From NCBI GenBank assembly GCA_032718475.1, contig JAUCBJ010007601.1, positions 37,773 through 101,772 on the forward strand: a stretch of DNA of 64,000 bases. The letters run 5' to 3'. Shown piece after piece: positions 26,146 through 59,226 of this stretch. The notes beneath the pieces are model-generated. The model saw only the letters and a list, made by a program, of their open reading frames with translations, ran no database searches and was not told the origin of the DNA. Source of the stretch: Nemertoderma westbladi (Eukaryota; Animalia; Xenacoelomorpha). How positions within the stretch are numbered: the first letter of the stretch is position 1; each line of letters opens with the position of its first letter. The translations under genes and the position numbers were made by a program.

Positions 26146-28832
26146 ACGACTGTTATACTGGAGCAGAAACTGTAGATGAGGCAGTTAGATTAGCCCATGG
26201 TATCACCAATTGTTTAAAAATGGGGGGGTTTAATTTAACTAAATTTGTATCCAATTCGAGGGAATTTTTAAAGTTAATCCCTGAAGAGAAGCGAGCCCAG
26301 AGAGATCTCGATTTGAACTTTGATGAACTGCCAGTGACCAGAGCTCTGGGGACTCTTTGGTCCCCCGAAAGTGATATTTTTACGTTCACAACGTCCACTA
26401 AGGAACACCCAGCATCTAAACGTGGTTGTTTGAGTGCGGTAGCATCCATCTATGACCCAATTGGTCTAGTGGCACCGGTAGTCTTACAAGGCAAACAATT
26501 CCTACAAAAATTGTGGGCAAATAAAGTAACCTGGGATGGTATATTATCATCTGACATGTCTTTAGAATGGGCTCAGTGGTATGAGCAATTAACACTCCTC
26601 TCTAAACTCTCAATACCGCGACATTATTTCCTCAATGAGATTTCCCATCCTGATGATATTTTACAGTTACATCACTTTTGTGATGCTAGCTTAAGTGGTT
26701 ACGGATGTGTCTCTTATCTGCGTCGGGTGTCTACCATAGGTCTCATTTCATGTACATTGGTATTTGCAAAAACCCGTACAGCACCAGCACCTTCGAAGGG
26801 AATTTCTATCCCTAAACTAGAATTACAAGCAGCGGTATTGCTTTCCCGTAGCCATGTTCAGATTATGTCCAGCATCACCCTGCATATCCAACCTAACAAC
26901 ATAATCTGTTGGTCGGATTCTACGGTTGTTTTGTGTCAAATAGCTAATGAGGCACGTAGATTTGAAACATACGTAGCAAATCGCACTGTTGAGATTGGTC
27001 GACATTTAAACCCAGAACAGTGGCGGTATATTCCCGGAACTCGAAATCCCGCCGACATTGCCAGCCGAGGTTCTACACCTTCAGAATTTGTCACTAAATA
27101 CCAAGATTGTTGGTTTAATGGACCCAAAGTTTTGAGGCGACCTGAGATTGAATGGGATGAATCTCTTAGACTTTCCAACCCTATGAAAGATCAAGTAATT
27201 CCCCAAGACGCTGGATTAAAATCAGAAAAATATACTAAACCAATTAAATCGAAGGTGATTGCTGCGGTAATAACTGGAAATCACTTTAGAGGGATACATA
27301 ATTTACTTCATCGGTTTAATTCTTTCGAAATGTTAGTAAAAGTGGTAGCTCGCTTTCTTGTAAAGTTTCACTACAATAGGTGCCGGTTGAGCGTTCAAAC
27401 TGACCAATTAATTGATGTGATAAATCCAGAAACACTTTATAAGACATGTAACCAACAAGCTCAAGTAAGAGTACTCGCCTTAGTACAGAAAGATGTCTAT
27501 GGAGATATAATTAGATCGATGTTAAACAAACAAACTACCCGCTTACCCAGATCTCTAGCTATTCTTAACCCATTCATCGGCAAGGATGGTTTGCTCCGAG
27601 TTGGTTCTAGAATACCACTAATAGACTCCTCAGAATATGACTTTATATTTCCCATCATATTACCTGCCTCGCATCACGTATCTATGGTAATTGTAAGAGA
27701 TATTCATATAAATACTGGACATTTAGGAATCGACTATACAGTTCAAAAGGTACGTAAAACTTACTGTATAAATTCGTTACGCCGATTAGTTAAGGCGATT
27801 CAACGTAAGTGTATATTCTGCCGCAAGAAATACGCCCAGCCACTTACACAGATGATGGCACCCCTTCCGGCAGTACGAACAATTGGTTATGTTCCTCCCT
27901 TTTCCAGAACTGGAGTAGATTTATTCGGACCTATGTATGTTGTTCGGGGGCGTGGGTCAGAGAAACGCTACGGTGTACTATTAACATGTATGATATCACG
28001 TGCCATAGTATTAGATCTATCTATGAATTATAGTGCAGATGCATTGTTGTGCGTCCTCAGACGCTTTATTTGTAACCATGCTGGCGTCGAACGTATTTAT
28101 TCTGACCAAGGCAGCCACTTTGGAGGCAGTAAAACAGAACTTGACAATTTACTTATCCAAGCCAAAGAACTTGGCATACCTGATGAAGTAATTGGAAAAA
28201 TCGAATGGGAGTTTCAAACACCAACCGCAAGCCATCACGGGGGCGTCTGGGAACGTCTAATTAGGACCACAAAAGATACACTAAACGCCTTATTAACTAA
28301 ACGACATTCTCAACATAAACTTGTTACTGAAGAGGTGCTACGTACTACGTTGTCTGAGGTACAATATTTAATTAATGACCGCCCATTGTGTGCATTGAAT
28401 GACGATGTAACTTCTACTGAGGTTCTTACTCCCAATCATTTGCTGTTGCGTCGAACAACAGCACTCCCGCAGTCTATTAAATTGATACATGAGATGTATG
28501 ACGGTAATGAGAATGAAGTGCAGTACAGATCTATGTGGCGCAAATCGCAGCATATTGCAAGTCAATTCTGGAGAATATGGCGGAATACTTATATCCAACT
28601 CTTAATCTCACGACAAAAATGGTTCAAACCAAGTCGAAATTTAGCAGTTGGAGATTTAGTTTTGGTTACTGATCCGGATACTAAACGGTTTAAATGGAAA
28701 CTCGGAAGAATTGAGAGTGTATTACCTAGTTCTGATGGATTCGTGCGATCAGTACATGTAAGAACAGGTACTTCAGTTCTATGTCGCCCCGTTCAGCGTT
28801 TATGTCTGTTAGAGATGGCTGTCGATGGTTAA
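26139..28832 (+). CDS. pol: BEL/Pao polyprotein, C-terminal part: RT catalytic YVDD, RNase H, integrase (-1 frame relative to ORF1)
   Basis: TAC GTA GAC GAC (YVDD) at 26139 is in frame with the 870-aa ORF starting at 26220. RNase H FCDAS, integrase H..H/C..C zinc finger, DDE motifs GVDLFGP, YSDQGSHF and GVWER. Confidence 0.95.
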   Translation, partial: YVDDCYTGAETVDEAVRLAHGITNCLKMGGFNLTKFVSNSREFLKLIPEEKRAQRDLDLNFDELPVTRALGTLWSPESDIFTFTTSTKEHPASKRGCLSAVASIYDPIGLVAPVVLQGKQFLQKLWANKVTWDGILSSDMSLEWAQWYEQLTLLSKLSIPRHYFLNEISHPDDILQLHHFCDASLSGYGCVSYLRRVSTIGLISCTLVFAKTRTAPAPSKGISIPKLELQAAVLLSRSHVQIMSSITLHIQPNNIICWSDSTVVLCQIANEARRFETYVANRTVEIGRHLNPEQWRYIPGTRNPADIASRGSTPSEFVTKYQDCWFNGPKVLRRPEIEWDESLRLSNPMKDQVIPQDAGLKSEKYTKPIKSKVIAAVITGNHFRGIHNLLHRFNSFEMLVKVVARFLVKFHYNRCRLSVQTDQLIDVINPETLYKTCNQQAQVRVLALVQKDVYGDIIRSMLNKQTTRLPRSLAILNPFIGKDGLLRVGSRIPLIDSSEYDFIFPIILPASHHVSMVIVRDIHINTGHLGIDYTVQKVRKTYCINSLRRLVKAIQRKCIFCRKKYAQPLTQMMAPLPAVRTIGYVPPFSRTGVDLFGPMYVVRGRGSEKRYGVLLTCMISRAIVLDLSMNYSADALLCVLRRFICNHAGVERIYSDQGSHFGGSKTELDNLLIQAKELGIPDEVIGKIEWEFQTPTASHHGGVWERLIRTTKDTLNALLTKRHSQHKLVTEEVLRTTLSEVQYLINDRPLCALNDDVTSTEVLTPNHLLLRRTTALPQSIKLIHEMYDGNENEVQYRSMWRKSQHIASQFWRIWRNTYIQLLISRQKWFKPSRNLAVGDLVLVTDPDTKRFKWKLGRIESVLPSSDGFVRSVHVRTGTSVLCRPVQRLCLLEMAVDG

Positions 28833-30747: not shown

Positions 30748-32556
30748 CAGGGCCGGATTAACCAATAGGCTAACCAAGCTGAGCCTTGGGGCCCCCGAAC
30801 TTTAGGAGCCCCCAAATTTTTGATTGAAATTGAAAGTGAAAGTTTTATACTTTTAAAGAAAACAACAGGTACCGTTACTGTATTCTTAGTAGATACCGGT
30901 AAATGTATAGTACTATCTGTCTTTTTCTTAATCGTTGTCTTGTCGCTATAAACACCCTTGCAATTTCTACTTACCATATTTAGTACCAATATTTTTTTAA
31001 CGAACAAAATTTCTGGACGCGATTCTGAGTTTCAAAGTTGATTTAGTCACTTTTGTAAGTTCGTTACCCAGCAGTTTGTGGCTGAAGATAAAGATGTAAA
31101 GATATCAGATATAGTGCTAAGTTATCAGCACAATATCTGTACCAACTACCAACTGTTGATGAGAAAAACCTAGAGTCCACGTTCCCATATGTTGAAATAG
31201 CGTTGAGAATGTATTTGTGTCTTATGTGCACCAACTGCGGTGGGGAATGGTCGTTTAGTCAACTGAAGCGAATAAAAAATGCGTTAAGGGCGTCTCGTCT
31301 ATGGGTGACGCAAGGCTGAGTGATTTCCTCACTATTTTGCATTGAGTTTGAAATACTTCGTCAAATTGATTTCGAAGGTATCAATGATTCATTTGCGAAG
31401 AAAAAGCCAAAAAGCCCATGTAAACCAATAACTCATTTAAAATACTAAATACCTTTCAATTTAAATACAGAGGTATGGATAACAGGAGTGCTAAACAGAC
31501 CATTATTGGATGTTTGCAACCGAATGCTGAAAGGGGAAAAGCCACTACCAATTTGGACTAAAGGTCAACTAAAGCCTCTCCCTAAGATAGGAGACCTCGG
31601 TATACCAACAAACTATCGTGGGATCTGTCTGTGGTAGCTGCCAAAATATACAATAAAATGATTCTATATAGGATTAGGCCTCACATAGAGAAACTACTGT
31701 GTAAGAGCCAAAACGGATTTCGACCAAGTAGATCAACAATAGCTCAGATACTTGTACTGCGGAGACTGATTGAAGGAATTAAGTCAAAGAATCTCCCCGA
31801 AGTCATGACTTTTGTGGACTTCAAGAAGGCATTCGACTCCATCCATAGAGGTAAAATGCTTGAAATCCTAAGAGCTTATGGAATACCAGAGGTAATTGTT
31901 GCTGCCATTGGATTATTATATTGTGAACTATTAAAAGTATATTGTGAAGTATCAACACTGAGACTGACGAAATCACTTGAACACCGAATTGATGGTTGCT
32001 ACACAACACTACTAAGTGCAGCCCTAAACATCAGCTGGAGATAACACATGACAAACGCCGAGCTCCCTGGTACTATACCACCTGTATCAACCACCCTCCG
32101 TGAACGCAGATTAAGATTCAGTGGGCACTGCTGGCGAAGTAAAGACGAGGTCATTCCAGATCTACTTCTCTGGCAACCAACACATGGAAAGCGAGCCGTG
32201 GACGACCAGCTATAACATATATAGATCAACTTGAAAGGGATACTGAACTTGGGATAAACGAAATTGCGACAACTATGGAGAATCGGATGGAGAACCACTG
32301 TCCGAGTTGGCTCGAGCTAGTAACAATATTACTTTTAAATACTAAAAAACCATATTATACTAATACTAAATGATATACCTACAATATGTTGGTTATTTTT
32401 AGAATAAGAAATACAATGTTTCCCATTAAAAAGTTGCCCATAATTTGCCAAATAGAGAGGCTGGCTTGCCCTATGCCAAGAATTATGAAAAATAAAATTT
32501 TAGGGGCCCAAATATACCATTAGTCTATGGGCCCCCAAAACCTTAATCCGGCCCTG
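30748..32556 (+). mobile_element. Non-autonomous hAT DNA transposon (internal deletion derivative)
   Basis: 14-bp TIRs CAGGGCCGGATTAA / TTAATCCGGCCCTG and an 8-bp TSD TGGACCTG (30740-47, 32557-64). Remnant hAT dimerisation motif FPYVEIALRMYLCL..TNCGGEWSFSQLKRIKN at about 31180-31290. Confidence 0.92.
31469..32333 (+). mobile_element. 5'-truncated, internally deleted RTE LINE nested in the hAT element
   Basis: Same family as 44275-48710 (QNGFRPSRSTIAQI, FVDFKKAFDSIHR, matching 3' end). Flanked by TTTAAATAC at 31460-68 and 32334-42, a likely TSD. Confidence 0.88.
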
Positions 32557-34010: not shown

Positions 34011-34179
34011 GTCTCGATAATTAAGAGTGAAAGCTGCAGTGAAATTTTAAACAGGCAATACTCCCCTAATAAAGCAGAGCTAATCAGCCAGCAGGTTGGT
34101 GCTATAAATGTTACTGATGAAAGTAGGAAATATGCCGAAGCCTGACAGATTTAACCTGCTCTAGATGCCCTAGGTAGAT

Positions 34180-34490
34180 GCAAAAATATATATACTGTAT
34201 AATAAAATGATTCTATATAGAATTAGGCCTCATATAGAGAAACTGCTGCATAAGAGCCAAAATAGATTTCGACCAAATAGATCAACAATAGCTCAGATAC
34301 TTGCACTACGGAGACTGATTGAGGGAATTAAGTCAAAGAATCTCCCCGCAGTCATGACTTTTGTGGACTTCAAGAAGGCATTCGACTCCATCCATAGAGG
34401 TAAAATGCTGGAAATCTTAAGAGCTTATGGAATACCAGAAGTAATTGTCGTTGGCATTGGATTGTTATATTGTGCACAGAATCTCAGGTA
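34180..34490 (+). mobile_element. RTE LINE reverse-transcriptase fragment
   Basis: MILYRIRPHIEKLL...DFKKAFDSIHRGKMLEILRAYGIP, nearly identical to the other two copies. Confidence 0.88.
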
Positions 34491-42094: not shown

Positions 42095-42640
42095 TTACAC
42101 TCCCAAATCCGGTTCACACATTCCATCTACCTTCATATCCTTAAATTCGGTAGGAAAGGCAATGAATATGAGCATTGTTATAAGAAATGAGGTGAATATA
42201 AAAGCGATTAGTAACAACCGGTTCAGTACACTAGCCACCTCTACCCAATCGTTGTGTATTCGTGAGGATTTCTCCTTGCGAGCTTTAGCGAGAGTGAAAC
42301 AGTCCAAATGGTTTGTCACTTTATCTACCAGAGTGTCAACCAACAATAGCAACTCCTCGTTGGTTGAGTCAGAGGCTTTCCGTTTGCGGTGCTTGTGTCG
42401 TTTTGTGTGGTGTCCGGTGCAGGTGGTGTTGGTGCAGTAGGTCGTGGAGGTGTCCGCCGACGGTGGCGCGGTTTCTGTATAGCACCGGTTTCGGTGCGGG
42501 CTGTATTTGGCGGCGAGTTGTCGTTGGTTCTTTAGGGGATCTTCGAGTTCGCATTCCAGGCATCCGTTTGGTCGATCTGGGAACATCGGGAATTGGTTGC
42601 CTCGGTTGCAGCGGTTGTCTAAGAATTTCTGCGCGTCAAC
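42095..42640 (-). CDS. Receptor last exon: M3-M4 cytoplasmic loop, M4 and stop
   Basis: ttttgag acceptor; DWVEVASVLNRLLLIAFIF is an M4 signature. Confidence 0.9.
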   Translation of the reverse strand, partial: VDAQKFLDNRCNRGNQFPMFPDRPNGCLECELEDPLKNQRQLAAKYSPHRNRCYTETAPPSADTSTTYCTNTTCTGHHTKRHKHRKRKASDSTNEELLLLVDTLVDKVTNHLDCFTLAKARKEKSSRIHNDWVEVASVLNRLLLIAFIFTSFLITMLIFIAFPTEFKDMKVDGMCEPDLGV

Positions 42641-45600
42641 CTCAAAACAAGAATATTGAGTAAATTAAACGTATAAGCCAACCCAAACTACCACCCATCC
42701 ACTCTTTATGAGAATTTCCAGGATTTAAGAATGCACTTTATCTTAAGTTCCACAGACTTCGTGTTTTAACTAGATTTTATGTGACTTTATTTCCCGTGAC
42801 GTACTATTGTACAGTTACAGTAATATCCGATACAGCCACCTATAGATAAAGATTAAAGAAAGAAAGTTTATTTGTGACTACTGTAGATATTGTTTGTTTG
42901 AAATTAAATTTGATTAAATCCACCTTTATTAAATCCACATTTCCTCAAAATAATGAAGGTGTTTTTTCTCTGTTTTTAGACCTTGAAAATAAGGATTGAA
43001 GAGTAGGACAAAAAATATAAACTAAGTTTTATAAGTTAAAATCAATTAAACATCTCAACTAACTTCTCTTTCATCCCAGATGTTGGAATTCCGTCGCCGT
43101 CGAACAAATACAATGTAGGAGAGATAGTGTAGGAATACCAGACGGATACAGTACGGGACCGGTGTAGTCATTGCTGTGAAACAGTAGACCAACACGTTGA
43201 ATGCAGTAGCCACGGTAATTAGTAGAATATTACCACCGTAGTACATGCCTTGGAGAAAACAAAACGTTGAAGTATTAAAAAGGTTCAGTTGAAACATATA
43301 AGTTATAAACGTACCGGCAGTATACAGTAGTTATGTCTCTTAAATCCATAAATTAGGTCGGCAAAAGTACGATAATTGACACACGTGTAGATACTTACCA
43401 TACCTTTCATTTTTTTTTAATTTCTTCCATGGCACAATCCTAATTTAACCTGGAGCCACTCCATGTGAACTCGGCGCAAATAACAGCTGATTTCGAGCAA
43501 AAATGGAAATGTAACCTGAGCTTTTGTCTTACGTTTATTGTTTTGTAAGAATGTACAAAATATAATATTTGCTATAATATTTATTTGGTTCGGTGTTGTT
43601 AGTGACCTGTTCATAAATACACTGTTGCGATTTGACAGTTTATAAAACCTCAAGCAATAATAACTAACCTAAAAGAGGAACAGACTCAGATGCGGGCATC
43701 ATCTGGCCTATTAGTAACAGGAAGACAGCCATCGACATAAACAGAGAAACGACCAGTTGAACTTTAGCTGGGCCGGCAGTACAAGGCAGAAACTGAAAGT
43801 AACAAAAATAGAAACTTCTGTACATACCTTGATAATTGATGTCATAGGTTGTGCTGAATGCAACAAACAATGTTTATGGTTACGCTATCATGATTGCGTG
43901 CATGTGCAGGGAATACTTTTATATGAATAGGCCTACAGCGCACAGATTAAAGCCTCATAAATAATTAAATAATTATTCCTAAAACTATAAATATATATCC
44001 CTCCAAAGAATGATAAGAATATTGTTTTAGTGAGAGTATACCGATAATGTAATGTTTATTGTAATGCCTAACTATACTAAATATTAATCTGCACTGGTCA
44101 AAGATGTTGCAACATGTGATAAGTGGAAATATAGGAAGTTCCTAATAGGCCCCCAATAATTGATTGATGATTAATCAACGCTCTCAATATTCGTAAATTT
44201 CAATGAGAGTTTGTGAGTGAGCGAAATGCACCTAATAAGGATATGCAGTACTGTAATCCACCAGCATGGACTATACTACTACTACTACTAGGTCGAGCGA
44301 ACTCGGACAGTGGAAATGAAATCCTTCCAGGCTTCCCGATTCTCCATAGTTGTCGCAATTTCGTTTCTCCTAAGTTCAGTATCCCTTTCAAGTTGATCTA
44401 TATATGTTATGACCGGTCGTCCACGACTACGCTTTCCATGAGTTGGTTGCCAGAAAAGTAGATCTGGTATGACCTCGTCTTTACTTCGCCAGCAGTGCCC
44501 ACTGAATCTTAATCTTCGTTCACGGAGGGTGGTTGATACAGGTGGTATTGTACCATAAAGCTCGGCGTTTGTCATGTGTTGTCTCCAGCTGATGTTTAGG
44601 GCTGCCCTTAGTAGTCTTGTGTAGCAACCATCAAATCGTTGTTCAAGTGATTTAGTCAGTGTCCAGGTCTCACCCCCATATAAAAATACACTTTCCACTG
44701 TGGCTCGAAAAAACTTAGTCTTCAGGTGCCTGGAGAGATCTGATTTCCAGATGGTATCCATTTTTGATAGAGCTACCCAAGCCTTTGCTTTCCTAACTTC
44801 TATGTCCTTTTTGCTACTCTCTATCCATGATCCAAGGTACTGGAAGTCATCGACCTTCCTTAGTTGATTATTATCAATGGTTGTCAAGTTTCCATCAACA
44901 TTAAAGGTCATGAATTCGGTCTTTGTAGCATTTATATGCAATCCAACCTCCTTAGCAGCCCTCTCCACTTTATTTAGTAGAAGCTGTGCATCTGCTAGGG
45001 TATTAGAGAGCAGGGCGATGTCATCCGCAAAGTCGGTGTCTGTGACTGTAGTTGCTGGATATCTACTACTTCTGCGTTCTTGAAGTGTGAATCCCAGGTC
45101 TTCACCCTTTGTGGCCGTCCTCATTGCGTAATCCAGCACAATTACAAATAGTAATGGTGCTAATGTGTCACCTTGCAGTACGCCAGCCAGGATTGAGAAA
45201 AACTCAGTTTCACCATCTGGTGAGAGTACCTGCGCTTCTGTGTCAAAATATAACACGTTCGTGGGGACTTCGCGCAGCACGTAGTCGGCAAGCCTTGGCA
45301 TACGGTTCATATAGAGCAAATGGGGCATGTCTAGTTTGGACCCCATATCCCATGCTATAAATGTATTCATTCGATATACAATCATATGTTAATCCGCTAG
45401 GTGGTGTCAAATTGTTATTCTGCAATTTCGTACTTACCAGTGCAGCACTGTACAGCAGTACCGTACCGGTAGGCCTATGTCATTACTTCTGAGTCTCTAG
45501 CGGATCCCCAATTAAATGTCTTAACTTTTCAATTTCGTAAAAGATAGACTTCATGATTCTCTACAGGCCACCAAAATTTCAGCTCAGGAAAATGAGGCCT

Positions 45601-48600
45601 TCCCGAGAAATTTAACATTTTCTAAAAACCACATAATCTGTCGTAGCTGACGTCAGACTGCATGATTTTTCACCAAACTTTACAAACTTTCTAAACTTTC
45701 TCTCTACTACTTACCTACTAAGTTTGGTTCAATTCCGAACGAGCGATGCCGAGAAATTCGCGTTCAAACATTTACCAGACAGACGGACAGACAGACAGAC
45801 GGACAGACGGACATGCCCCATTTGCCCTATATGAACCGTATGCAAAGGCTCGCCGACTACGTGTCTCGCCCCACAATCCAATGCCAGCAACAATTACTTC
45901 TGGTATTCCATAACCTCTTAGGATTTCAAGCATTTTACCTCGATGGATGGAGTCGAATACCTTCTTGAAGTCCACAAAATTGATGACAGCGGGGAGATTC
46001 TTTGACTTAATTCCTTCAATCAGTCTCCGTAGTGCAAGTATCTGAGCTATTGTTGATCTATAATAATAAGTGAATTGTTGTGGGGTGAGTGACGCGGTGT
46101 ATTGAATATACAATGTGAATAAGACAATATGATGATGCTCTCCATAGCGAAAAATATCAACCGGCCCTATTGGGGCTCGAACCCGATACCTAGGTTTCAA
46201 ACTTCTGGTTATCATCAGCCGGGTGAGTGTACTGAGCTACCAGACCGGATGAATATTTCGCTGTGGAGTGGGAGATCATATTTAGGCCAACTAATCACTC
46301 AAAGGAAAGTACAAGTTCGTTGCTATTGTTGATCTACTTGGTCGAAATCCGTTTTGGCTCTTACGCAGTAGTTTCTCTATGTGAGGCATAATCCTATATA
46401 GAATCATTTTATTGTATATTTTGGCAGCTACCACAAGCAGACAGATCCCACGATAGTTTGTTGGTATGCCGAGGTCTCCTTTCTTGGGGAGAGGCTTTAG
46501 TTGACCTTTAGTCCAAATTGGTGGTGGCTTTTCCCCTTTTAACATCCGGTTGCAAACATTCAATAATGGTCTGTTTAGCACTCCGGTTTTCCATACCTCC
46601 GCTGGGTTTTCATCTAATCCACTCGCTTTATTATTGGACATGCTTTTAATGCTTCTTTGGAGTTCGGCAGGTGTGAAGTCCCCTGTTTCTATAGGTAGTG
46701 TCTTGTCATATATTTTCCTTGTAGGGCTGACCTCGATGTTTGGTGGCTGCCCAAGCAAGTTGCTGAAGTGATTTTTCCACTTCCCAACACTTCAGGACTA
46801 TCGGCTTTGAGGCGCCCCTTTGCACAACTTTTCCGACCAGATACCTCATTTACAGTTTGCCAGGTAAGCCTTGATTGTTGCTGTATGTGAGCAGTTGTAA
46901 TTGCTTCAGTTTTATCCTGTATGTACTTTTCCTGGCTGATGTTGTAGGCCAATTTAAGATCGTCCTTAGCTTTCTCAACCTTGTTAATAATGTTTTCGGT
47001 TGTTGGTTGTTCGGTTTTAACTTTGTAGGCTATCTTAAGATCTTCTCTCTTACAAGTAACCTCAGAGTTTAGCCATGCCACATATTGTTTTCGTTTGGGT
47101 TTCTGGGGGATATGCCTCTTAGCTGAATCCTTGTGGGCTGTTATTATATTCTGGTATATTGAATCGGTGGACTGGTCTTCATCCATTGACTGAAGTGCTT
47201 CAAAGCGATTTTGAACTTCTACTGTGTAAGCATCCTATACTCATTGTCAGTTCTGAGTTTCTCCCAGTCATAGTTGATTTGCTTGCTTGTCCTGGGTTTG
47301 CTGGCTGTCAAACTGAGTCTGATTTCTGCAGTCACAATTCTGTGGTCCGTACCAATTAGGTTGAACGAACTGTATGCCTCACAGTTGATCATGCTGTTTC
47401 TCCACTTTTTGTTTATGAGGATGTAATCCAGTTGTGCTTTGGTTCCATTAGGGTATTGAAAGGTCCATAGCTTCCCCTTACTCTTTTCGAATGTGTTGTT
47501 TGTTGGTATCAATTCACATTCTTCCATTAGGTCTAAAAGTAAGTATCCATTTCTGTTAGAACTGGTGTTATAGGTGTAACCTTTGATGTCTTCTGGGCCA
47601 ATTTGGGCATTCAGGTCACCAGCAATGACTTTAACATTGTGTTTCGGAATGTCCTTTATAAGCCCAGTCAGTTCTTCATAAAACTTGACTGCTTGTTCTG
47701 GCTCTGAGGCATTGGTTGGACTGTAGCAACATATAACTGTTGCCTTGGGATTCCCATCAAATGTTGCGATCATAACCCTGGAATTTATAGATTCGATGTT
47801 GTTTAGGGTCTTAAGTGCAAATGGGCTTAGCAGAATTCCTACTCCACCAATTGATGCATTGGCCGAGTTTCTTACTGCTGAGCTTGTTACTAACGTCCAT
47901 CCATTTCCAATGTCATTGTACTTCATGGCAGTGTCTTCATGACAAATCCGATGTTCTTGGATGCAGATGATGTCGATGTTATATTCCATTGCCAGAGCGA
48001 CCATGTCACCCTGTTTGGTATGTGCTTTCAGCGTGCGTGCATTCATTGTAGCAATCTTTAGTGTCTTTTTACATTTCAACAGGTTGGTTCTTCTTTCTTC
48101 TCGGTCTTCTGTTCCAGTAGCCAATTTATCGACCCCAGCCTGGTGTACCACTGGGGGACGCGGTCCTTGTTGACCCGGGCGACGACCGAGCCGGTATTTC
48201 TCCTGGAGGGTTCTCATACTCATATCTTTCAGTTGCGGGAGTAAACCGCTTGTGGTCGCAACTCCTACAAGCGTCTTCGCAGTAGAGCGCCGTTGGTTGA
48301 TTACCTTCCGCCGACCTTGTCAGCATGTCTAGCCGTTGGTTGATTACCTTCCGCCTATCCATGGCCTACAGCCCTGCTGCCGACTGTAGGGGTCCTTTTG
48401 TTACACCCTGAACCAAGTGTGCCTCCTGGGTTAGGTTACCTAACACTGGTAGAGGAGCATCCAGTATAGACAGGGCGGGGCGTGTATCATCTCTAATGCA
48501 GATGCGTATCAAGCCTTTGCCTTCAATGGTGCCCTAGGCGCTATAGCCCTCAATGACTTATTTAGTTGACGGGGCTGAACCAACCCACTCTTGATCAACT

Positions 48601-51600
48601 AAATAATGAATAGGCTATGCTTATCGGGCCTGCCCTACTGGGCTGGCAGCTACAGGTAGTACCACATTACTGCCATAGTGGTAGCAGGATCTGGGGACCT
48701 GACCTGACCTATGGACCATATCGACGACCATAGAGCCAGAACAACACACATCAAAACCGTATCGTTTCGAGGAAAACCCAAAACACCTTCCAATCTCTTT
48801 TGCCTCAGTGTGGATCGCATCTCCTAATTTTTTCACTGAGGTATGGAAAGATACAATGAGCAGTTTTAAAATAGGCACTTGCTATCAGAATTTAATGAAA
48901 ATAAAGGTACTGTGGTTATTTTCAGAGAGGCAGAACAACACATAAAAAATTAACATTACTATTCTCATATTAACTCATTTTCTTCTAAAAAGACAATATA
49001 CGGTTATAGAATTTAAACATATGATGCATAACGAAAAATTGTGACTGAAAAGGTTTTGAAAAATTGTGGAATGTAATTCTCAATTCGTTTAGTAAATGTG
49101 AAGAAATCCAGATAGAATCCAGAGCAATAAGTAACGTACCTGGCATAATATTATAACCGAGGTAAGGAATATACAGGGAACTATCAGGTTAAACTCATAG
49201 AAGCCAGACTTCCGTCGGAGGTGCAGATAGGCTATTGCGAACCGGTACCGCAGTACTGGAGTGGTGGTTGTAGCCGCGTACATTGTCTCATGTATCCGCA
49301 TGTACTTATCCTCAACCGCCCACGCCGAACTCTCTTTGTAAGACGACATGTCGATTTTTCCCTCTTCAATTTCCTAATGTGAAAAAATATTGGATATTTA
49401 CAGAGTTCATTATAAAGTGACGGAACATCCTGGAATTTTGTTCCAAAATAATTCTACTGTAGTTCCAGATATAAATTTAGTAAAAATGTTAGATAATATC
49501 CTATAAGCCATAAACCTAATTTAATAATTTAGGACCCGTATTATTCAATAAGCCATGATTCAGAGTTAATAAGTCAGGATCTGATGTCTTTTGATTTCGT
49601 TGATATTTGATAAAAATATAATTAACATTAAATAATAGCGAATTCAACCGAAAATAATTATCTGCTCACCTTAATAGTGCCATTGACTTTGTACTTTTTG
49701 GTGGATTGACCCTCGATGTTTATGTGAACTAAATCGGCGGTGTAGGCCCAGGAGCTGAAGATGAGGCAGCAGACCTGTTTGTCGAAAGGAAAGTTTCGAA
49801 CATCTATCTCACAGCGAGATGTCGCGATTATTGGCGTCGGCCACAGTGCAGTCTTCCCGTTGCTTTCTATTATTGCGGTCGACTCCAACCGATTAGTACC
49901 AATAATGTTCTTTTCGTCAGCTCTAAAATAAAACATTATTAAATAATTTGAATTGATTAAATAATTAATTGAAAGTCGATTTGTTTGCTGTGTTGAGTCT
50001 TTAACGTAAACTGCGATTTGTTAAAATAGTAAATATTCGTTTTGGGATCAATCCTACATTCAGGCCAGTATCAACCTACAATAAAGGTAAATACGCACCG
50101 AACGGAAACTTTCTTTAACATAACTAAATACACCTCCTCACTAGAGCACTAGAGGAAGCCTGAACTTCCGATGGTTAAATTATAACGAAAATTTAATAAA
50201 GTGAACCCGTAGGGGGTGTATTTATCGCGGTAACTTACTGGTTATACAGTATGATATCAGGTTGCCATATCTGGTACGCCGACATGCGGAAACTAGAAAT
50301 GTTTTTAAATTTAGTTTTATCCCACATGAGGTATTCGTCAGTCCAAACCTAAAATAAATAACGCAATTAGAGAAATAGGCCTAATCCATTACTGGTAGGC
50401 TGCGATAGGACAGGCCCGGGGGCAATAACAAAGCTGGTTCCCCTTACATCGGAGTAGTTTATGGAGCTATTAGTTAGCTAATTGCTATACCCGCGGCTGA
50501 GCAGTGCATTTGTATAAATCTTAAATTGGATTGTTATTACAAATTATGCAGGTTAGTAAAAGAATGTGTTACAGAGGCAGGTGGGAAGGTACCAAAACAA
50601 TAAACAAGTGTTGGGAATATTTTATAAAAACCAAAAGCAGGAGTCTTTATTTCATATATATCGCCCGTCATCCTTCGTCACATACAATACCAATAAAGAG
50701 TCATGATTCCTAATGTTCATCATAGGCATTGTATATCTCGTTTAACAAACGAGGCATTGCACAATCTCTAGCACCACCCTGCTGGCACTACGTATGAATC
50801 TTTCCAACCACTTTCACCAACCAAACTCTATGGTCACTGATCGATCAACCTTGTTATGTAGCAGCCTGGTGGTGAGAGAGAATGTGGTGGTCAGCACTTG
50901 TCATTCCTTTATTTTCTGCTGAAAGACCCTGGTTTTATTGATAATGCAGATGAATAAGGTATTTTATTCCAAAATTGTAATATTACTCAACGCTGTTAGT
51001 ATTAACAGCGAGTTGTTATTTAGCACTTTACATACAACTTTAGAGGACATTACCGTATTGTATGGGCCTGTACATTTACTGTAGTATTGTATTTGGTGTT
51101 ATTGTTTACGTGGTAACCATGACGGCGTTTACTAATGTCCACTAAGGGGACATAACTTAATGCCGTCATTGGATACCACGTAAACAATAGGTGGTATTTA
51201 TAATTAATTGCCTGACTGCCAGATAAGCATACCTACCTGTAGCTATTAATAACCAGTAGCTATAAACTATTAACATGGGTCCAAACGCCACCATAAATAT
51301 AAGCGAACTTATTTATAACAAAATTTATTTCATTTTATACATTTATTTATACAGCAACTAATATAATTTGTGCAGTTTCTATCACTTATAATGTATAAGT
51401 ACAATTATTTCGTAATGTTACAACTTTGGAATAAAACTCATACATACTTGTTGCAAAGTACTTTACAGTGTTCTCATCCTCGTGGCTTTATTTTCACTCA
51501 CTCACTAACGTTCGTTCGTGTAACAAAACCGCTCGGATCATCACACTGCAAAGTGCTACTTTACACACAAGTACGTAAATAGTTATTTTACATGGGTTTT

Positions 51601-54600
51601 CACCTGGGTAGGAACTGTTAATTTCTGGGTTGGTTGACCGACTGGCCTGTAATACATCCTAGTGGTATGAACGATACGTATATATATTATTGCAATAGTG
51701 TTACAGAAAATTATCAAATGATAATTTTCAACATTATCTCGTTTGATATCATTTATTACTTACCATCGTCAACCAGAAGGTGGATCTAAGTTGTTGCATT
51801 CGCTCTTCCACACTAATTATTTGAAGTAAATAAAGAGTAATATAGACTGGAACAGCTGTAAGATGGCTCCTTACAGGTCGAACGTGTTTGCTGTAAGATA
51901 ATATAACATCAGTAAGATGGTTCCTTAAACTCTTCGCGTTCTTTAGATTCAAACGCGGAAATTATACGGAGATACGGTATGTCATAGTAAAGGTACATAT
52001 TTATTATTAAATTCAGTAATAAGTTCCCTGCGGAAAATTAAGTTAATTTTAAAACAAAGAATAAAAACATATTTTCATTATTTTGTAAAAATTAATTCAA
52101 ATTAAAGTTAAAAGAAAATATAAATAACATATTGTTAGAAGTATTTCATTACCTGTAATGGGAATTAGGGCCTAACAGCTGAAACTCCAACGTTTTCTCA
52201 TTGACCTCCTGAGGGTAATAGTTGTACGGATCCTGTGTCGATCTACAGTCACAGTAATCCCGTTGACGTTTGGAACGCTGCAATGAAACTCCTGAAATAA
52301 ACATTAAATATTGCATATAAATTATGTTAAATTATATTAAGTCACCGACCGCACTAACAATTAATATATATTACATGTACTTAGTGAAGAATCTTTTAAT
52401 TTCTGAAAGCCTAAATGTTTAGTAGATTGAAAATGCTGCTGTTGCAACTAGAGTGCAGCAGTTCTGTAGCTCTCAACTCTCTCTTGTATGTAGCTCTCAA
52501 CAGCGATCCATATGCGCACGCACATGTACGACATGCAAATGGCCTTTCGTCAGATTTGTCAACACTAGCCCTGATAGTATGTAATTGGCTGATCTCCAAC
52601 AACCTTCTTATGGATATAGAGCAGCTACATAATGAGGTTTTGTTTAGGTTGATATATGCTTCATAGCGTATAGCAGCTATCATACGGTGGATTCGGTGGA
52701 TATCATTAGGTGGATTCTGTGACCTTCTTTTTGAATGGGGAAGCACGGTTTTACTAATTACCTTTAGTGACTAATTGATCTGAATGTGCATCTCCATAGC
52801 AGCCACTGTATGTGTATCTATGGATTTGATATCACTGTAGAACAACTTACCAGCTTCTGAAAAGGCAGGATTATAATTGATATAGAACACACCCGAATCG
52901 CAATTACCATTTTGTTCAAGCAGCAGCTAGGTCTAGTGGTGACATTCCTGGAGTTCCAATTAGGAAGCCCTGCCTGGTTCTATCCTTAGATGGGGCAGCA
53001 CTATTTAGGCGCAGTGCTTTAAGTGCTGCAGTCTAGACCAACCTCGGCTTTCATCCTTCAGAGGTCGATAAATGGGAACCAAGACAACTTGGGAAAGAGG
53101 GTGGAAGGGTTTACTGTGGAAGATCACCCATGGTGGTGAACAGGCATTCATTCCTTGGCTTAACGAGCCTAAAAGATTCTCCCATTCATAATATCATTTT
53201 TGTATCCTTATGGGTTTCCTTCTTTAAAAGAGCAAATGTCATCACTGCCAATAGAAATATTCCAAGGAAGTAGGACTGCGCTCGATGGGAATCGTAAAAG
53301 AGAATACCGTAGCGTGTGGTTCGCGAGTTGAGTAGTGGGTGGGCGGATACCGAGACATTGCTAGCTAAAACACAACCGGTCACAAAGACAAGAGACTGAA
53401 GCAATTTACTGCTGAAATTCGACGGGAGTTAATTGGCCGAGTTAACGGGCTTTGCTTGATCCCAACGGTTGTGCGGCCGTTCATCTACTCGTGATGTACT
53501 GAGTCGGTCCCAGGTGGCTGCTTCAGGTTTACATACCTCCATCTCTCTAATTCCGCACTCTCTGTGCTTAACTGCTTGCCCGCTTTTCGATAAATTGATT
53601 TTACAATCTCCTTTACCGTTTCGGTTTAGAACCACTGAAAATTAATGTGTTAAAAGCCGAGAAAGTTGCGAGTGAGAGAGCTTCAAAGGTCAATAAAACA
53701 GGATGGAAATGTATTGGAACACTTTGAATTTTAATTTTGATTACACGAGGCCCAAGTTGTTGTTGTACTGTAGGACTTATTGTTTTGATTATAACACGAC
53801 GTGTTGTTTAAAGTTCTTTATGGTGTTGGTAAGATATTCCTACTGTATCAAAACAAACCGCGATGTTTACGACACAAAATATCTAATGAGATCGCATGTG
53901 TTATTTTTCACATTTTTACAGTCGCATTTCAACTTCGATTAATAAAATATAGTGTATATTACGATTTCACAGCAATGTGTTGTGTAGTACTATTTGACAT
54001 CTTTATGGCCGAGTGTGTTTGATTCCTGAGCGGTGCGCTGCAATAAAGAGAAAACGAGATTAGTAAACTGATTACCGTAGCCGTAATGATAATATTGAAT
54101 ATCATAATATAAATTAACTTTATTGTATATTCAGCACCCCCAACTTTAAAGCTTTAATATAAAGAAGTTATAAAGCTACTTCATAAAACAAATATCAGAA
54201 AGAAAATGGCTCGAATAAGTTAAAATATAAAAAGATAAAACAAATGAAGGACTGTCAGCCACAGGTATGTGATATGGTATTTGAATTTTACTGTATATGT
54301 GCGTTCTATTTTTTGTATACTGTATAGTATATACTGCTAGGCCTATATACCGGTAACTTTGCTGTCCAGTGCCCAATAATTAAAATTTAGCATTGATAAA
54401 GATAGCCATTGGCTTTCGAAACGTCTGCTAGGCCTAACTACCTACTATTGTTTCATACCTGTGGCTGACAGTCCTTCATTTGTTTTATCTTTTAATATTT
54501 ACTCGCCACATTCCCCACCATGATTTTTAAGTTAAAATATAGTTAATTATCACTTTATTTAGTTATATTAAATATTGTATATTTTACAAAGCTTTGCTAT

Positions 54601-57600
54601 ACCATGTAATATTATGGTTTTGTTCAGAAATTGAAAAAATGAGAAAGCGCGTCACCGGGGGTTGAACCAGCGCTTTACGTACGTTTCAGCCTATCAGGCC
54701 TCATCAGTAGCGCTAACCAGTGATTGATTGATTGATTGATTGATTCGTTTTAATTCCTGTACAAAACATGTAAAAAGGAAATCATTTGTCAAATCAGTTC
54801 AGCCACTATTACGTAGCCCTACATGTTTTACATAGCTTTGCTATACCATCAGCTTTACGTAGCCCTTAATGCCGGAACATTGTGCTGGCTTCTTTCAATT
54901 CACAATCGTAATGGTTCAATGCGGCTTGGATTGAGAAAGCTGTGCCGGCTTATCGACAAAATTGCGCTGCCACTACCCTTTATCCTCCATTACTTTCGCG
55001 AAATTATCCGCATCTTCAAGGCCATGTCTGGACAGGTGCCGATTTAGGTGCCGATATAGGTACTCAGGTTTCTCTCTGCATGTTTATCTCACTATGTGTC
55101 TTACCCTGCTGTGACGTCACTCCATACTGTTCTGTTATTCTAACATTACGGAAGATTAACCCCATCAGCATGATACGTCAACAAAATATTTTATACCGTA
55201 CATGAAGTCACCTTTGTAATAGGGAACACATGTGGCATAAAAAAATCCTGCTGTCAATAATTAACACAAATCATATATTTAATTCGCCCAATAATCCTTG
55301 CCGTATATTTTGGAATAGTGTCAGAGTGTTATTATTAACTACCGGTCACATAAAAATAATTATTAATTTTCATCAGCATCAGCATCAGCATCCATTCAGA
55401 ATACTAAAGCGAACGAATACAAAACATGGAGTCTAAACAATTACCCATTTATATCCTCATCATATGTCAGTCAAAAATATTTTGAATTCATATCATTAAA
55501 TTCTACGGCAGACCTTAGAATAGTGCCGATGGGGTTAATCTGCCGTAAATCTTTTAGAATTTGATTTTTCTAAAAATATCAGAACAGTATAGAGTAGTTG
55601 ATGTCACAGCATGGTAAGGAGAGCATGGCACAGAGTGAGAGAAACATACAAAGAGAAACATGAAAACCTGCGTCGGCACCTGTGTCCGAACCTATGTCGG
55701 CACCTGTGTCGGCACCTGTGTGTCGGCACATTTGTCGTCAGCACATATATCTGCAAATGTGTCGGCACCTATGTCTACACCTATGTCGGCACCTGTCTCG
55801 TCGCTATACGTCGGCACCTATGTCGGTACCTGTGTGTTGGCACCTGTGTCGGCACATTTATCGTCAGCACCTATGTCGACACCTGTCTCGTCACTTACGT
55901 CAGCACCTATGTCGGCAACTGTGTCGGCACCTGTCTCTCGTCACTTACGTCGGCACCTATGTAGGTACCTGTGTCGGCACCTGTGTGTTGGCACCTGTGT
56001 CGGCACATTTGTCGTCAGCACCTATGTCGACACCTGTGTCGACACCTGTCTCGTCAATTACGTCAGCACCTATGTCGGCACCTGTGTCGGCACTTGTCTC
56101 GTCACTTACGTCAGCACATATGTCGGCATCTGTGTCGGCACCTGTCTCGTCGCTATACGTCGGCACCTATGTCGGTACCTGTGTCGGCACCTGTGTGTTG
56201 GCACCTGTGTCGGCACATTTATCGTCAGCACCTATGTCGACACCTGTCTCGTCACTTACGTCAGCACCTATGTCGGCAACTGTGTCGGCACCTGTCTCGT
56301 CACTTACGTCGGCACCTATGTAAGCACCTGTGTCGGCACCTGTCACGTCACTTACATCGGCACCTGTGTAGGAACCTGTGTCGGCATCTGTGTCGGCACC
56401 TATGCCGGCACCTGTGTCGGCACCTGTCTCGTCACTTACGTCAGCACCTATGTAGGCACCTATGTCGGCATCTGTGTCGGCACCTATGTCGGCACCTGTC
56501 TCGTCACTTACGTCAGCACCTATGTAGGCACCTGTGTCGGCACCTGTGTCGGCACCTGTCTCGTCACTTACGTCAACACCTATGTCGGCACCTGTCTCGT
56601 CACTTACGTCGGCACCTATGTAGGCACCTGTGTCGACATCAGTGTCGGCACCTATGTCGGCACCTGTGTCGGCACATTTGTCGTCAGCACCTATGTCGGC
56701 ACCTGTGCCGGCACCTGTGTCGGCACCTGTCTCGTCACTTACATCAGCACCTATGTCGGCACCTGTGTCGGCACCTGTCTCGTCACTTACGTCGGCACCT
56801 ATGTAGGCACCTGTGTCGGCATCTGTGTCGGCACATTTGTCGTCAGCACCTATGCCGGCACTTGTGTCGGCACCTATGTCAGCACATGCCGTGTCTGTCT
56901 TATGCTATGTCTTAATATAGTTAAAACAATCCGGGATGCTCTCGACAATAAAGACTACACATCAGTTATATACAATACATAGACCTCAGGAAAGCATTTG
57001 ACTCCTTAGACCACTCCATTCTTCTTAAAAAACTTAACTGTTATGGTATTTGCGGCACTCCTCACCATCTTCTCTCTGACTATCTTACAAACCGCTCTCA
57101 ATTTGTTTCTCTTGGAAATGTCAACTGCGTCAACAGATCTATTCCATGTGGTATTCCCCAAGGCTCCGTCCATGTCAATGATCTTCCCAACTGCAGCTCC
57201 TTTCTCACAACTCTATTCGCCGACGACACCTCTTTAGTGCACCGTTCTGGTGCATCTTCACAATTAATTCCAACCGTTAATTTACATCTTGCCAAGGTGT
57301 CAGATTGGCTTATCGATAACAGACTCTCTCAATCAACACTAAGAAAACTGAGTTTACTATGTTTTCCAATACTTTAAACTTTGACTCATCCAACTCTTCC
57401 ATCATCATTAACGGCAAACGAATTGCGGAAACGTATTCTTCTAAATATCTAGGACTTCATATTTATAAGAAATTATCGTTTCGCTTACATATAAATAGTA
57501 TGCTCGAAAAATTTCAAAATCAGGAGGTCCGGGGTTCTATAAGCTGCGAAATATAAATAATGCGCTCATTATTTTTAACAGTGATATATCCTTATGTTTA

Positions 57601-59226
57601 TTATGTTTGTTCACCATGGTTGGTTGCAGTTTGATATAGTAAACGAAAGATGCAAATAAATAAATCAAAATAAATCAATCATGTCTCGTCACTTACGTCG
57701 GCACCTATGTCGGCACCTGTGTCGGCACATGTGTCAGCACTTATTTCGGCACCAGTTTCGGCACCTGTGTCGGCACCTATGTCGGCACCTACCTCGTGAC
57801 TTACGTCGGCATCTATGTCAGCACCTGTGTCGGCACCTATGTCCGTATCTCTCGCACCTATGTCGACACTTGTCTTGTTTTAGCACTTGTATGTCAGTAC
57901 TTCTGTCGGCACCTCTAACGGAACTTGTGTCGTCTCATCCCCCATCCACGCCCCCATCCACCATGTTATCCTTTCAATGATGCTGCTGCCAAAGCACACG
58001 ATGATGCACTGGCTGGTCCTCATGGCGAAAACAATGTCCTGCAAAGCGGAGGCGGTTCCGTTCAAGTGTAAAGCTTGGGGGAACCAATGAGACACCAACA
58101 ATGTTATATAGAGTCTGGTTGGAGATCTGTGCATTCTACTTCACACCATGAACCCGACGTAGCATTCGTGTGAATGTGCCATCCGGAGATTTGGGTCATC
58201 AGTAGTTAGAGCCCAGCATAGACTCCCACAAGAGTACTGGTATTACTGCTGCCATAAATAATCCAACCTTAAGGTTCCGTTTTATTCTATGTGACTTCAA
58301 AATCCTGGACAGACTATTCAATTCTACCCATGCCTTCCCCTTACGTATCCGAAGGTATTCAATTGACTTCTGGATCCCTGATCCCAAGCAGCAGAAGATA
58401 TCCCCTATGGCATCCCTGGAGCTTACGCCCTTACGATCAGACATTTCCTGAGAGCTGTCACAGTTCACTGTTTAAATTTTGGTCTTCCTGGAGTTTACAG
58501 AAAGGACCAACACTAGAAGCAACCTGCTCCAATGAGAAGAGGAGCCTTTGGGCTCCCTCTAGTGATTCTGTGAGTACTCCTGAGTCACCAACAAAGTCTA
58601 AATCATTTAGGTACTTGGCTGGAATTTTTCTCGATTTCGGGGGCTAGTACGTGTACCCTATCTTCATTATGAAACAAAACAAAAAAAAATGAACTAAAAT
58701 AAAATTAAACAATTGAAGTTAAATAAAAGTGTATTCAACTAAAATTAACAGTTTAATAAGAAAATAATAATTTAATAATAAAATAATAATTGAATAATAA
58801 AATAATAATTGAATAATAAAATAATAATTGAATAATAAAATAATAATTTAATAAGAAAATAATAATTGAATAATAAAATAATAATTGAATAATAAAATAA
58901 TAATTGAATAATAAAATAATAATTTAATAATATATTCATAAAATATATTTTATTTTTATTTTTAAATATGGTTATAACTAAATAAATATATATATATATA
59001 TTGGTTTAATCAAATTAATTGATATATTTAGATTGCTCGATAAAACAATATTAATAATAAAATATTAATTTAATAATAACACATATCCATTTCATCATAT
59101 CGTTTAACCTACAGAGTAACGTAATGTTTGAAGTTTCTAATAAATATATTATCACATACCGCAGTTACCACCAAGACATTCGAAGCATAATACAAGCAAC
59201 ATAGGTTGGTAGAAATACCGAAACAT
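42095..59226 (-). CDS. Divergent nicotinic acetylcholine receptor-like (non-alpha) Cys-loop ligand-gated ion channel subunit, spliced, about 621 aa in the best model
   Basis: Phase-compatible GT-AG exons: 59226-59160, 52291-52153, 52027-51997, 51940-51764, 50348-50239, 49922-49670, 49373-49140, 43792-43669, 43248-43064, 42640-42095 (sum 1866 nt). Motifs VRPV, WTDEYLMWD, IWQPDIILYN, Cys-loop CEIDVRNFPFDKQVC and M1-M4. The first three exons are tentative. Confidence 0.85.
43064..43248 (-). CDS. Receptor exon: M3 and start of cytoplasmic loop
   Basis: GMYYGGNILLITVATAFNVLVY...PVPYCIRLVFLHYL with AG/GT borders. Confidence 0.9.
43669..43792 (-). CDS. Receptor exon: M1-M2 linker and pore helix M2
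   Basis: FLPCTAGPAKVQLVVSLFMSMAVFLLLIGQMMPASESVPLLG, with ttcag acceptor and gttag donor. Confidence 0.92.
45256..45872. mobile_element. MITE/HINE-like element inserted in the LINE RT
   Basis: Imperfect inverted repeats of about 54 bp (CACGTAGTCGGC...GGGCATGTC), a (CAGA/CGGA)n microsatellite and ACA duplicated at the junctions. Removing it restores the LINE frame (GIGLLYFDTEAQV). Confidence 0.8.
46061..46321 (-). mobile_element. tRNA-derived SINE inserted in the LINE
   Basis: 15-bp TSD GCTATTGTTGATCTA, A box TAGCTCAGT, B box GGTTCGAGCCC and a (TTA)n tail. Confidence 0.88.
49140..49373 (-). CDS. Receptor exon: loop F, loop C and M1
   Basis: IDMSSYKESSAW...LHLRRKSGFYEFNLIVPCIFLTSV with AG/GT borders. 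Confidence 0.92.
49670..49922 (-). CDS. Receptor exon: Cys-loop and loop B
   Basis: C-X13-C loop with FPFD, followed by FSSWAY. Confidence 0.95.
50239..50348 (-). CDS. Receptor 110-nt exon (loop A), not in the ORF track
   Basis: VWTDEYLMWDKTKFKNISSFRMSAYQIWQPDIILYN, with ttttag acceptor and gtaagt donor. Confidence 0.93.
51100..51189. repeat. Short palindromic mini-MITE
   Basis: TATTGTTTACGTGGTAACCATGACGGC ... GCCGTCATTGGATACCACGTAAACAATA. Confidence 0.55.
51764..51940 (-). CDS. Receptor exon: N-terminal helix, beta1-beta2 (loop D)
   Basis: YSKHVRPV...LLQIISVEERMQQLRSTFWLTM with gtaagt donor. The acceptor position is uncertain. Confidence 0.85.
52153..52291 (-). CDS. Putative receptor exon 2 (N-terminal extension with RSKR)
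   Basis: Strong tttcag acceptor and AG/gtaatg donor around an open frame VSLQRSKRQRDYCDCRSTQDPYNYYPQEVNEKTLEFQLLGPNSHY. Confidence 0.55.
52921..53185 (+). mobile_element. Degenerate tRNA-headed SINE with Meta-type central domain
   Basis: GGTCTAGTGG A box, GGTTCTATCC B box and CTCGGCTTTCATCCTTCAGAGGTCGATAAATG core. Confidence 0.6.
54208..54510. mobile_element. Penelope-like element remnant (inverted pseudo-LTR arrangement)
   Basis: Inverted repeat of about 50 bp (AAAAGATAAAACAAATGAAGGACTGTCAGCCACAGGTATG and its complement) enclosing a minimal hammerhead motif. Confidence 0.6.
54388..54430 (+). ncRNA. Minimal type I hammerhead ribozyme variant (U3/A8), PLE-type
   Basis: TAGCA-TTGATAAA-GATAGCC ATT GGCTTTC-GAAACGTC-TGCTA: stem I TAGCA/TGCTA, stem II hairpin, palindromic ACGT stem III and GUC triplet. 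Confidence 0.65.
54667..54716 (-). ncRNA. Minimal type I hammerhead ribozyme motif
   Basis: Minus strand AGCGCTA-CTGATGA-GGCC TGATA GGCT-GAAAC GTAC GTA-AAGCGCT. Canonical core, with an A-A mismatch at the stem I closing pair. Confidence 0.72.
55033..55690. mobile_element. Degenerate inverted-repeat (foldback/MITE-like) element
   Basis: 55033-55170 is an imperfect reverse complement of 55523-55690 (e.g. TTACGGAAGATTAACCCCATC vs GATGGGGTTAATCTGCCGTAA). Confidence 0.6.
55670..57915. repeat. 12-bp GTCGGCACCT(A/G)T minisatellite with 24-bp variants, split by a LINE fragment
   Basis: Arrays at about 55670-56888 and 57681-57915. Confidence 0.93.
56895..57680 (+). mobile_element. 5'-truncated CR1/L2-group LINE RT fragment
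   Basis: DLRKAFDSLDHSILLKKLNCYGI, YLTNRSQFV, GIPQGS, LFADDT and KYLGL motifs, with an AATAAATAAATCAA tail. Confidence 0.85.
57950..58430 (-). mobile_element. Old RTE LINE 3' fragment
   Basis: IRKGKAWVELNSLSRI...LKVGLFMAAVIPVLLW aligns with VRKAKAWVALSKMDTIW...FFRATVESVFLY of the RTE at 44288. Confidence 0.65.
58755..58935. repeat. AT-rich 19-bp minisatellite
   Basis: AATAATAAAATAATAATT(G/T), about 9 copies. Confidence 0.85.
59160..59226 (-). CDS. Putative first coding exon (signal peptide)
   Basis: MFRYFYQPMLLVLCFECLGGNC-G, with a gtatgt donor in phase 1 that matches the next exon. Confidence 0.45.

Follow-up and report, generated by a model that had tools for sequence, protein, structure and literature searches.

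The locus and its surroundings

The window, by which we mean the whole stretch of 64,000 nucleotides that was analysed, carries on its minus strand an intact-looking gene for a Cys-loop receptor subunit, with a splicing pattern deduced from the DNA. The model contains eight exons running from 52291 to 42095 with 571 open codons, all seven introns are GT-AG with consistent phases, and the product (the window subunit) possesses the C-x13-C loop, the PF02931 and PF02932 domains and four transmembrane helices. Pfam ligand-binding or transmembrane families match six of the eight exons, one of them weakly (E 0.084), and the family HMM matches seven; no second pLGIC gene was seen in the window with this HMM. 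The features of the locus, in the direction of transcription, are as follows.

59160..59226, minus strand: candidate signal-peptide exon, hydrophobic and in the right phase
52153..52291, minus strand: inferred exon for the N-terminal extension and first helix (without Pfam match, and placed by its splice sites, its phase and its alignment with relatives)
51764..51890, minus strand: exon for beta1-beta2 and the loop D Trp (PF02931, E 4.5e-6)
50239..50348, minus strand: exon for loop A with its Tyr (PF02931, E 6e-10)
49670..49922, minus strand: exon for beta5-beta6 with the one-residue insertion of the family, the Cys-loop and the loop B Trp (PF02931, E 2e-16)
49140..49373, minus strand: exon for the end of loop F, loop C without vicinal Cys, pre-M1 and M1
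44291..48319, minus strand: LINE retrotransposon within the 5.3-kb intron that separates the M1 and M2 exons, filling most of this intron directly upstream of the M2 exon
43669..43792, minus strand: M2 exon, with the end of M1, the M1-M2 linker (P-2' A-1' K0'), M2 and the M2-M3 loop (PF02932, E 1e-5)
43763..43771, minus strand: codons of P-2', A-1' and K0'
43064..43248, minus strand: exon for M3 and the start of the intracellular loop (matched by the family HMM at E 7e-8 and by no Pfam family)
42095..42640, minus strand: last exon, with the intracellular loop, basic MA helix, M4 and stop

The modelled N-terminus (52291-52153, minus strand) contains a basic motif that we take to be furin-like, followed by two cysteines ahead of the first helix. 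A signal-peptide-like ORF near 51296 was ruled out, as it lies within a very high-copy interspersed intronic repeat (about 50960-51590) whose summed depth is thousands of times that of single copy. Comparison of DNA runs revealed at least six exonic differences, and among those listed five are synonymous and one changes Ala to Val in the M3-M4 loop. The M2 exon is identical in all three runs, which come from two samples and two studies and include one that is possibly the source of the window. No paralogous exons were found in the DNA runs at 90% or 80% likeness.

Elsewhere in the window, a 41-bp satellite occupies positions 1-19153 (about 467 copies, 93% matches, strong skew of C over G), and a Pao/Bel LTR retrotransposon lies at 20389-28829 on the plus strand, with two long ORFs of 1918 and 904 codons and with 24-, 60- and 84-bp repeats in its gag region. 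Further LINE elements or fragments are found at 31586-32041, 34174-34488, 45775-46236 and 56952-57374, and 12-bp minisatellite arrays at 55666-56885 and 57686-57843 yield long spurious ORFs. The word TAGGCCTA, which is common in echinoderm DNA, is enriched outside the satellite (6 occurrences vs 0.55 expected), which is too slight a hint to point to a host.

Pore and ligand-binding site of the subunit

The earlier note had described 43669-43792 as an exon of a nicotinic-type subunit bearing an anion-type filter, and its 41-residue translation was reproduced on the minus strand. In prime numbering the pore of the window subunit reads P-2', A-1', K0', Q2', S6', M9', S10', V13', L16', L17' and Q20', with the codons of P-2', A-1' and K0' at 43771, 43768 and 43765 (minus strand). 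The Gln at 20', Met at 9' and Val at 13' are as that note had claimed, and it had missed the Gln at 2'. The translated M2 is devoid of acidic residues and, together with Pro-2', Ala-1' and a basic 0', this is the sequence signature of an anion-type pLGIC. Human alpha7 is the best PDB match of the exon, with a single gap that falls opposite the Pro, and the linker of the window subunit is one residue longer than that of alpha7. The exon has 66 PDB matches, of which the best 60 are nAChR without exception, and a tree with one long GABA-like outgroup places the subunit nearer nAChRs than GABA-A or glycine receptors, which supports the proposed origin in the nicotinic branch. AG and GT flank the exon, and only one of the seven AG acceptors in 43740-43860, that at 43792, preserves the frame after the phase-0 upstream donor. 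Since the Pro codon sits 21 bases into the exon, a nearby splice choice could not remove the Pro alone.

In the ligand-binding domain, alignment reveals a lengthened loop C without Cys-Cys and a loop F that is longer by about 17 residues. The vicinal Cys-Cys in loop C by which nAChR alpha subunits are recognised is therefore absent, so the window subunit does not qualify as a canonical alpha subunit, and its gating by ACh is doubtful. The five aromatic residues of the site are kept (TyrA, TrpB, TyrC1, TyrC2 and TrpD, the loop C tyrosines being placed by a gapped alignment), and so is the vestibule Asp after loop A.

Probable relatives among echinoderm and hemichordate receptors

A HMMER scan with the Cys-loop exon retrieved 1979 proteins at E<=0.001, and the best 150 contained no close orthologue and no orthologue from a named echinoderm or hemichordate proteome. 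As a guess from the relatives described below, the host may be a deuterostome or allied marine invertebrate, and in view of the missing orthologue it may belong to a poorly annotated group. The best single-domain match among those listed is P0025, an unnamed ENA fragment of 186 residues that is 57% identical to the window subunit over M1-M2 and has the same extra linker residue, with Asp in place of Pro. It reads Asp-Ala-Lys, Gln2', Thr9' and Thr20', with Phe at TyrC1. Two other entries, P0047 and P0069, resemble fragments of its group. Other HMMER matches, such as P0130 from Saccoglossus, carry Val-Val-Lys at the linker, and we coined for them the label GVVK family. Thus, the earlier claim of a linker insertion holds for the one extra residue and for the PAK motif, with one refinement: relatives have Val or Asp where the window subunit has its inserted Pro, so that the insertion characterises the family and the Pro alone sets the window gene apart.

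A profile built from the relatives and three window exons gave 1278 matches among 5514 candidates, the best 120 being listed; it was seeded with GVVK members, which biases its ranking. The top ranks were held by Saccoglossus, Ptychodera, Glandiceps, Apostichopus, Diadema, Lytechinus, Asterias, Patiria, Acanthaster, Anneissia and Antedon, and Holothuria was added through cluster membership, so that the family spans three hemichordate and nine echinoderm genera. Among the matches listed, the named GVVK members are all echinoderm or hemichordate, and the remainder is mostly insect alpha7. The members P0153-P0179, P0187, P0188 and P0223 are alpha-type, with Val-Val-Lys from -2' to 0', Cys-Cys intact and a basic MA helix. 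Their annotation is only alpha7/9/10-like, as for Saccoglossus XP_002738695.1 and for 'alpha 9/10-like 103'. Some echinoderm and hemichordate GVVK proteins have an N-terminal Cys-rich extension. Other searches were less informative: single-exon word-index searches gave 16 and 4 candidates, none of which passed (weak evidence), the ESM Atlas returned generic pLGIC clusters only, and the supplements of PMC6896357 and PMC10338036 contained none of the motifs sought. A metagenome scan reduced 312 pattern matches to two loci, L001 5713-6429 and L002 1972-3423, which were set aside as bacterial-looking genes for Cys-less pentameric channels.

The window subunit and the GVVK proteins share a one-residue insertion in beta5-beta6 and another in the M1-M2 linker, the absence of Glu-1', similar M3 and M4 and a basic MA helix. 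They differ in that GVVK proteins carry Val-Val at -2'/-1' and Leu9', in most cases Ser2' and Glu20', and retain Cys-Cys, whereas the window subunit has Pro-Ala, Met9', Gln2' and Gln20' and has lost Cys-Cys. Its gene also has two more introns, in a stretch encoded by a single exon in unnamed GVVK fragments. Both insertions are common to the window subunit, P0025 and GVVK. Among the 143 domains scorable at both sites (out of 309 Cys-loop domains in the fetched proteins), 23 have both, 119 have neither, as does human alpha6, and one is discordant; the beta5-beta6 length alone is also found in seven unrelated entries.

Full-length comparisons point to the same relatives. In BLAST among the fetched proteins the top 18 hits are all GVVK (E 1e-71 to 1e-55, the next being 4e-54), and the family HMM scores of the window subunit are 313 for GVVK, 282 for cnidarian, 225 for mixed alpha9-like and 220 for alpha7. 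Identity hardly differs, at 30-37% to GVVK vs 35% to Helobdella alpha7. Trees were computed with the insertion columns and long loops removed and with AChRB sequences absent. Of 62 aligned rows, 20 that were redundant, fragmentary or very divergent were dropped for the LG+G4 tree, which was computed from the other 42 and had one long GABA-like outgroup; it joined the window subunit to P0025 (99/98) and both to GVVK (84/95, with bootstrap not fully settled). The LG+C20 tree of 26 rows gave 100/98 and 93/96 for the same groups. The branch of the window subunit is long (0.72-1.07), and AU tests retained its placement with alpha7 (p 0.098), with a Macrostomum protein (0.18) and with the heteromeric-type group (0.14), the cnidarian placement being borderline (p 0.045). 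Since the trees favour GVVK and the AU tests leave three of four alternatives standing, descent of the window subunit from the echinoderm/hemichordate GVVK family is likely but not proven. If this kinship holds, the insertion and the loss of Glu-1' are older and the Pro came later.

Predicted charge selectivity and comparison with known channels

Judging from its sequence, we lean towards predicting an anion preference for the pore of the window subunit. The complete account, of a non-alpha-type subunit derived from GVVK stock, predicted to prefer anions and likely of separate origin from the molluscan chloride receptors, is in our judgment evenly poised. According to this account, an ancestor would have acquired the extra residue in the linker and dispensed with Glu-1', as in the Val-Val-Lys relatives with their basic intracellular portals; on the branch of the window gene, Pro-Ala would later have been placed at the linker and Glu20' lost, in convergence on the motif of glycine and GABA-A receptors. 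The aromatic box might bind an amine or a quaternary-ammonium compound, be it ACh or another, and the subunit would form or join an anion-preferring channel. Without acidic rings at -1' and 20', the open pore would pass Cl- better than Na+, and in cells with low internal chloride the flow of Cl- would lead to inhibition or shunting. Met9' and Gln2' might ease opening, standing in for the engineered change at 13'.

Published work bears on this prediction from both sides. The presence of Pro-Ala goes along with anion selectivity as measured (PMC4055736; PMC9962794), and PAR follows it in nematode channels (PMC9962794). E-1'A alone makes 5-HT3A slightly anion-selective and A-1'E makes the glycine receptor cation-selective (PMC8011927). 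The anion switch of alpha7 requires Pro insertion and E-1'A together with either V13'T or L9'T (PMC6800317), and alpha7 with the first two changes and neither of the others is described there as non-functional; since the window subunit keeps Val at 13' and Met at 9', this counts against the predicted anion channel.

A channel of the same ancestry might instead be cation-permeable or non-selective, the insertion tuning conductance or Ca2+ permeability and Pro-Ala being incidental, which we regard as unlikely. Glu20' is kept by most GVVK members and the vestibule Asp by the window subunit, which would suit such a channel. Basic MA helices are present in cationic 5-HT3A too. The sister fragment P0025 has Asp at -2' and cationic GLIC has Glu there (PMC3590989), so the -2' site appears labile, and alpha7 carrying E-1'A alone remained cationic (PMC6800317; PMC8011927). 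Against this, the M2 of the window subunit unites the lack of any acidic residue with an exact Pro-Ala-basic motif, and loss of Glu-1' goes together with a basic portal in 19 of the 19 full-length GVVK proteins scored. Over the 22-residue stretch that leads up to the M4 Trp, net charge is +2 in the window subunit, +4.2 on average in these 19 proteins and -2.0 in 86 GEK/GER proteins (with two exceptions at +4 and +5); the latter are mostly insect alpha7, and the contrast amounts to one phylogenetic comparison.

It is also quite unlikely that the window subunit is silent by itself, as an accessory or orphan subunit whose partners set selectivity and whose pore residues matter in a heteromer only. 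The missing Cys-Cys, the longer loop C, the enlarged loop F and the atypical Q2' and M9' would fit such a role, and Alpo4, which likewise has its aromatics but no longer Cys-Cys, is still an orphan (PMC10338036). However, residues of both the principal face (TyrA, TrpB, TyrC1, TyrC2) and the complementary face (TrpD) are kept, as a homomer requires, and with GVVK-type partners Glu-1' would still be absent in all five subunits.

It seems highly improbable that the window subunit is a divergent lophotrochozoan member of AChRB, or that AChRB and GVVK come from one anion-selective ancestor, despite the identical PAK triplet. The oyster sequence Crassostrea K1QEQ6, which we take from its motif to be AChRB-type, differs from the window subunit in that it has neither insertion, retains Cys-Cys and carries an M2 that looks unrelated. 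In the alignment with PMC4795631 its PAK arises by substitution with no added residue: from the Pro at the M1 end to Lys0', the linker has five residues in K1QEQ6 and cationic subunits but six in the window subunit, and an unlabelled second row of that alignment has the same short linker as K1QEQ6. Moreover, a PA[KR] motif in M2 occurs in no fetched protein except the window subunit (277 scanned). Given the linker length, the missing insertion and the different M2, the PAK shared by the window subunit and AChRB looks convergent, as judged from one named and one unlabelled sequence. The AChRB-type features, assessed by eye against the one named sequence and not against a published definition, are absent from the window subunit, which is probably not a molluscan or flatworm chloride receptor of this type. 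The separate origin from Lymnaea-type channels that the earlier note had suggested thus gains support from one AChRB-type sequence without either insertion. As for a decaying or mis-modelled gene, with the M2 exon spliced otherwise or not expressed, the unfixed first exon and the long branch might hint at it, but 571 open codons, canonical splice sites, mostly synonymous exonic differences among those listed and the similarity of P0025, uninterrupted across the modelled M1/M2 junction, make it hardly credible.

The larger and more testable lead lies with the relatives of the window gene, as GVVK may be a deuterostome family of anion-type nicotinic receptors that is possibly undescribed. No description of such a family from echinoderms or hemichordates was found in full-text literature outside subscription journals, passages of PMC8634148, PMC10603993 and PMC12467107 do not mention one, and no functional paper or measured current for any GVVK member was found in the literature searched; the supplement tree of the Octopus preprint (bioRxiv 10.1101/2025.04.02.646353), in which Saccoglossus and Strongylocentrotus are represented, may already show the GVVK clade. 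More tentatively, and with somewhat less than even confidence, we propose that GVVK proteins would be a conserved family of ACh-gated chloride channels of echinoderms and hemichordates that arose from cationic nicotinic receptors, apart from AChRB, by an insertion resembling the alpha7 switch, the window gene being a derived offshoot in which Pro-Ala re-evolved and the ligand probably changed. If true, this would be a first for deuterostomes, an anion-selective nicotinic lineage now mis-annotated as alpha7/9/10-like, and inhibitory nicotinic receptors would have originated a second time, apart from the molluscan ones. Such an origin, by insertion, would give deuterostome invertebrates a molecular candidate for fast cholinergic inhibition. 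Ion selectivity is thought to shift less often than ligand preference. The natural series at -2'/-1' (Val-Val, Asp-Ala, Pro-Ala) would allow the effects of the proline, of the added residue and of the loss of Glu-1' to be tested against each other.

Several known systems resemble the window subunit in part. The AChRB, Lymnaea anionic nAChRs, Schistosoma SmACC and Octopus AChRB1 are likewise of the nicotinic branch with Pro-Ala replacing Glu-1', and are measured or proposed Cl- channels (PMC4055736; bioRxiv 10.1101/2025.04.02.646353). The Lymnaea and Schistosoma subunits with Pro-Ala form one clade inside nAChRs (PMC4055736), measurements show Octopus AChRB1 to be a Cl- channel gated by ACh, and AChRB-like channels are reported only from lophotrochozoans (bioRxiv 10.1101/2025.04.02.646353). 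The molluscan nAChR expansion is documented (PMC6896357), and mixed and PAR-type motifs occur in several molluscan clades (PMC13174522), so that motif changes are not rare in the superfamily. Alvinella Alpo4 (PMC10338036) is, like the window subunit, nicotinic-derived, without vicinal Cys and with the aromatic residues kept, and its pore is of cation type, with Glu-1' and Asp20' vs Ala-1' and Gln20' in the window subunit. Cephalopod chemotactile receptors are also nicotinic-derived and without vicinal Cys; sequence searches gave no sign of close kinship with these or with Alpo4. The engineered anionic alpha7, which combines the Pro insertion with E237A and V251T (Galzi 1992 and Corringer 1999, cited in PMC6800317), has in common with the window subunit a true insertion and Pro-Ala at the intracellular end of M2, and the natural sequence departs from it in that 13' stays Val, 9' is Met and not Thr, and both 2' and 20' are Gln.
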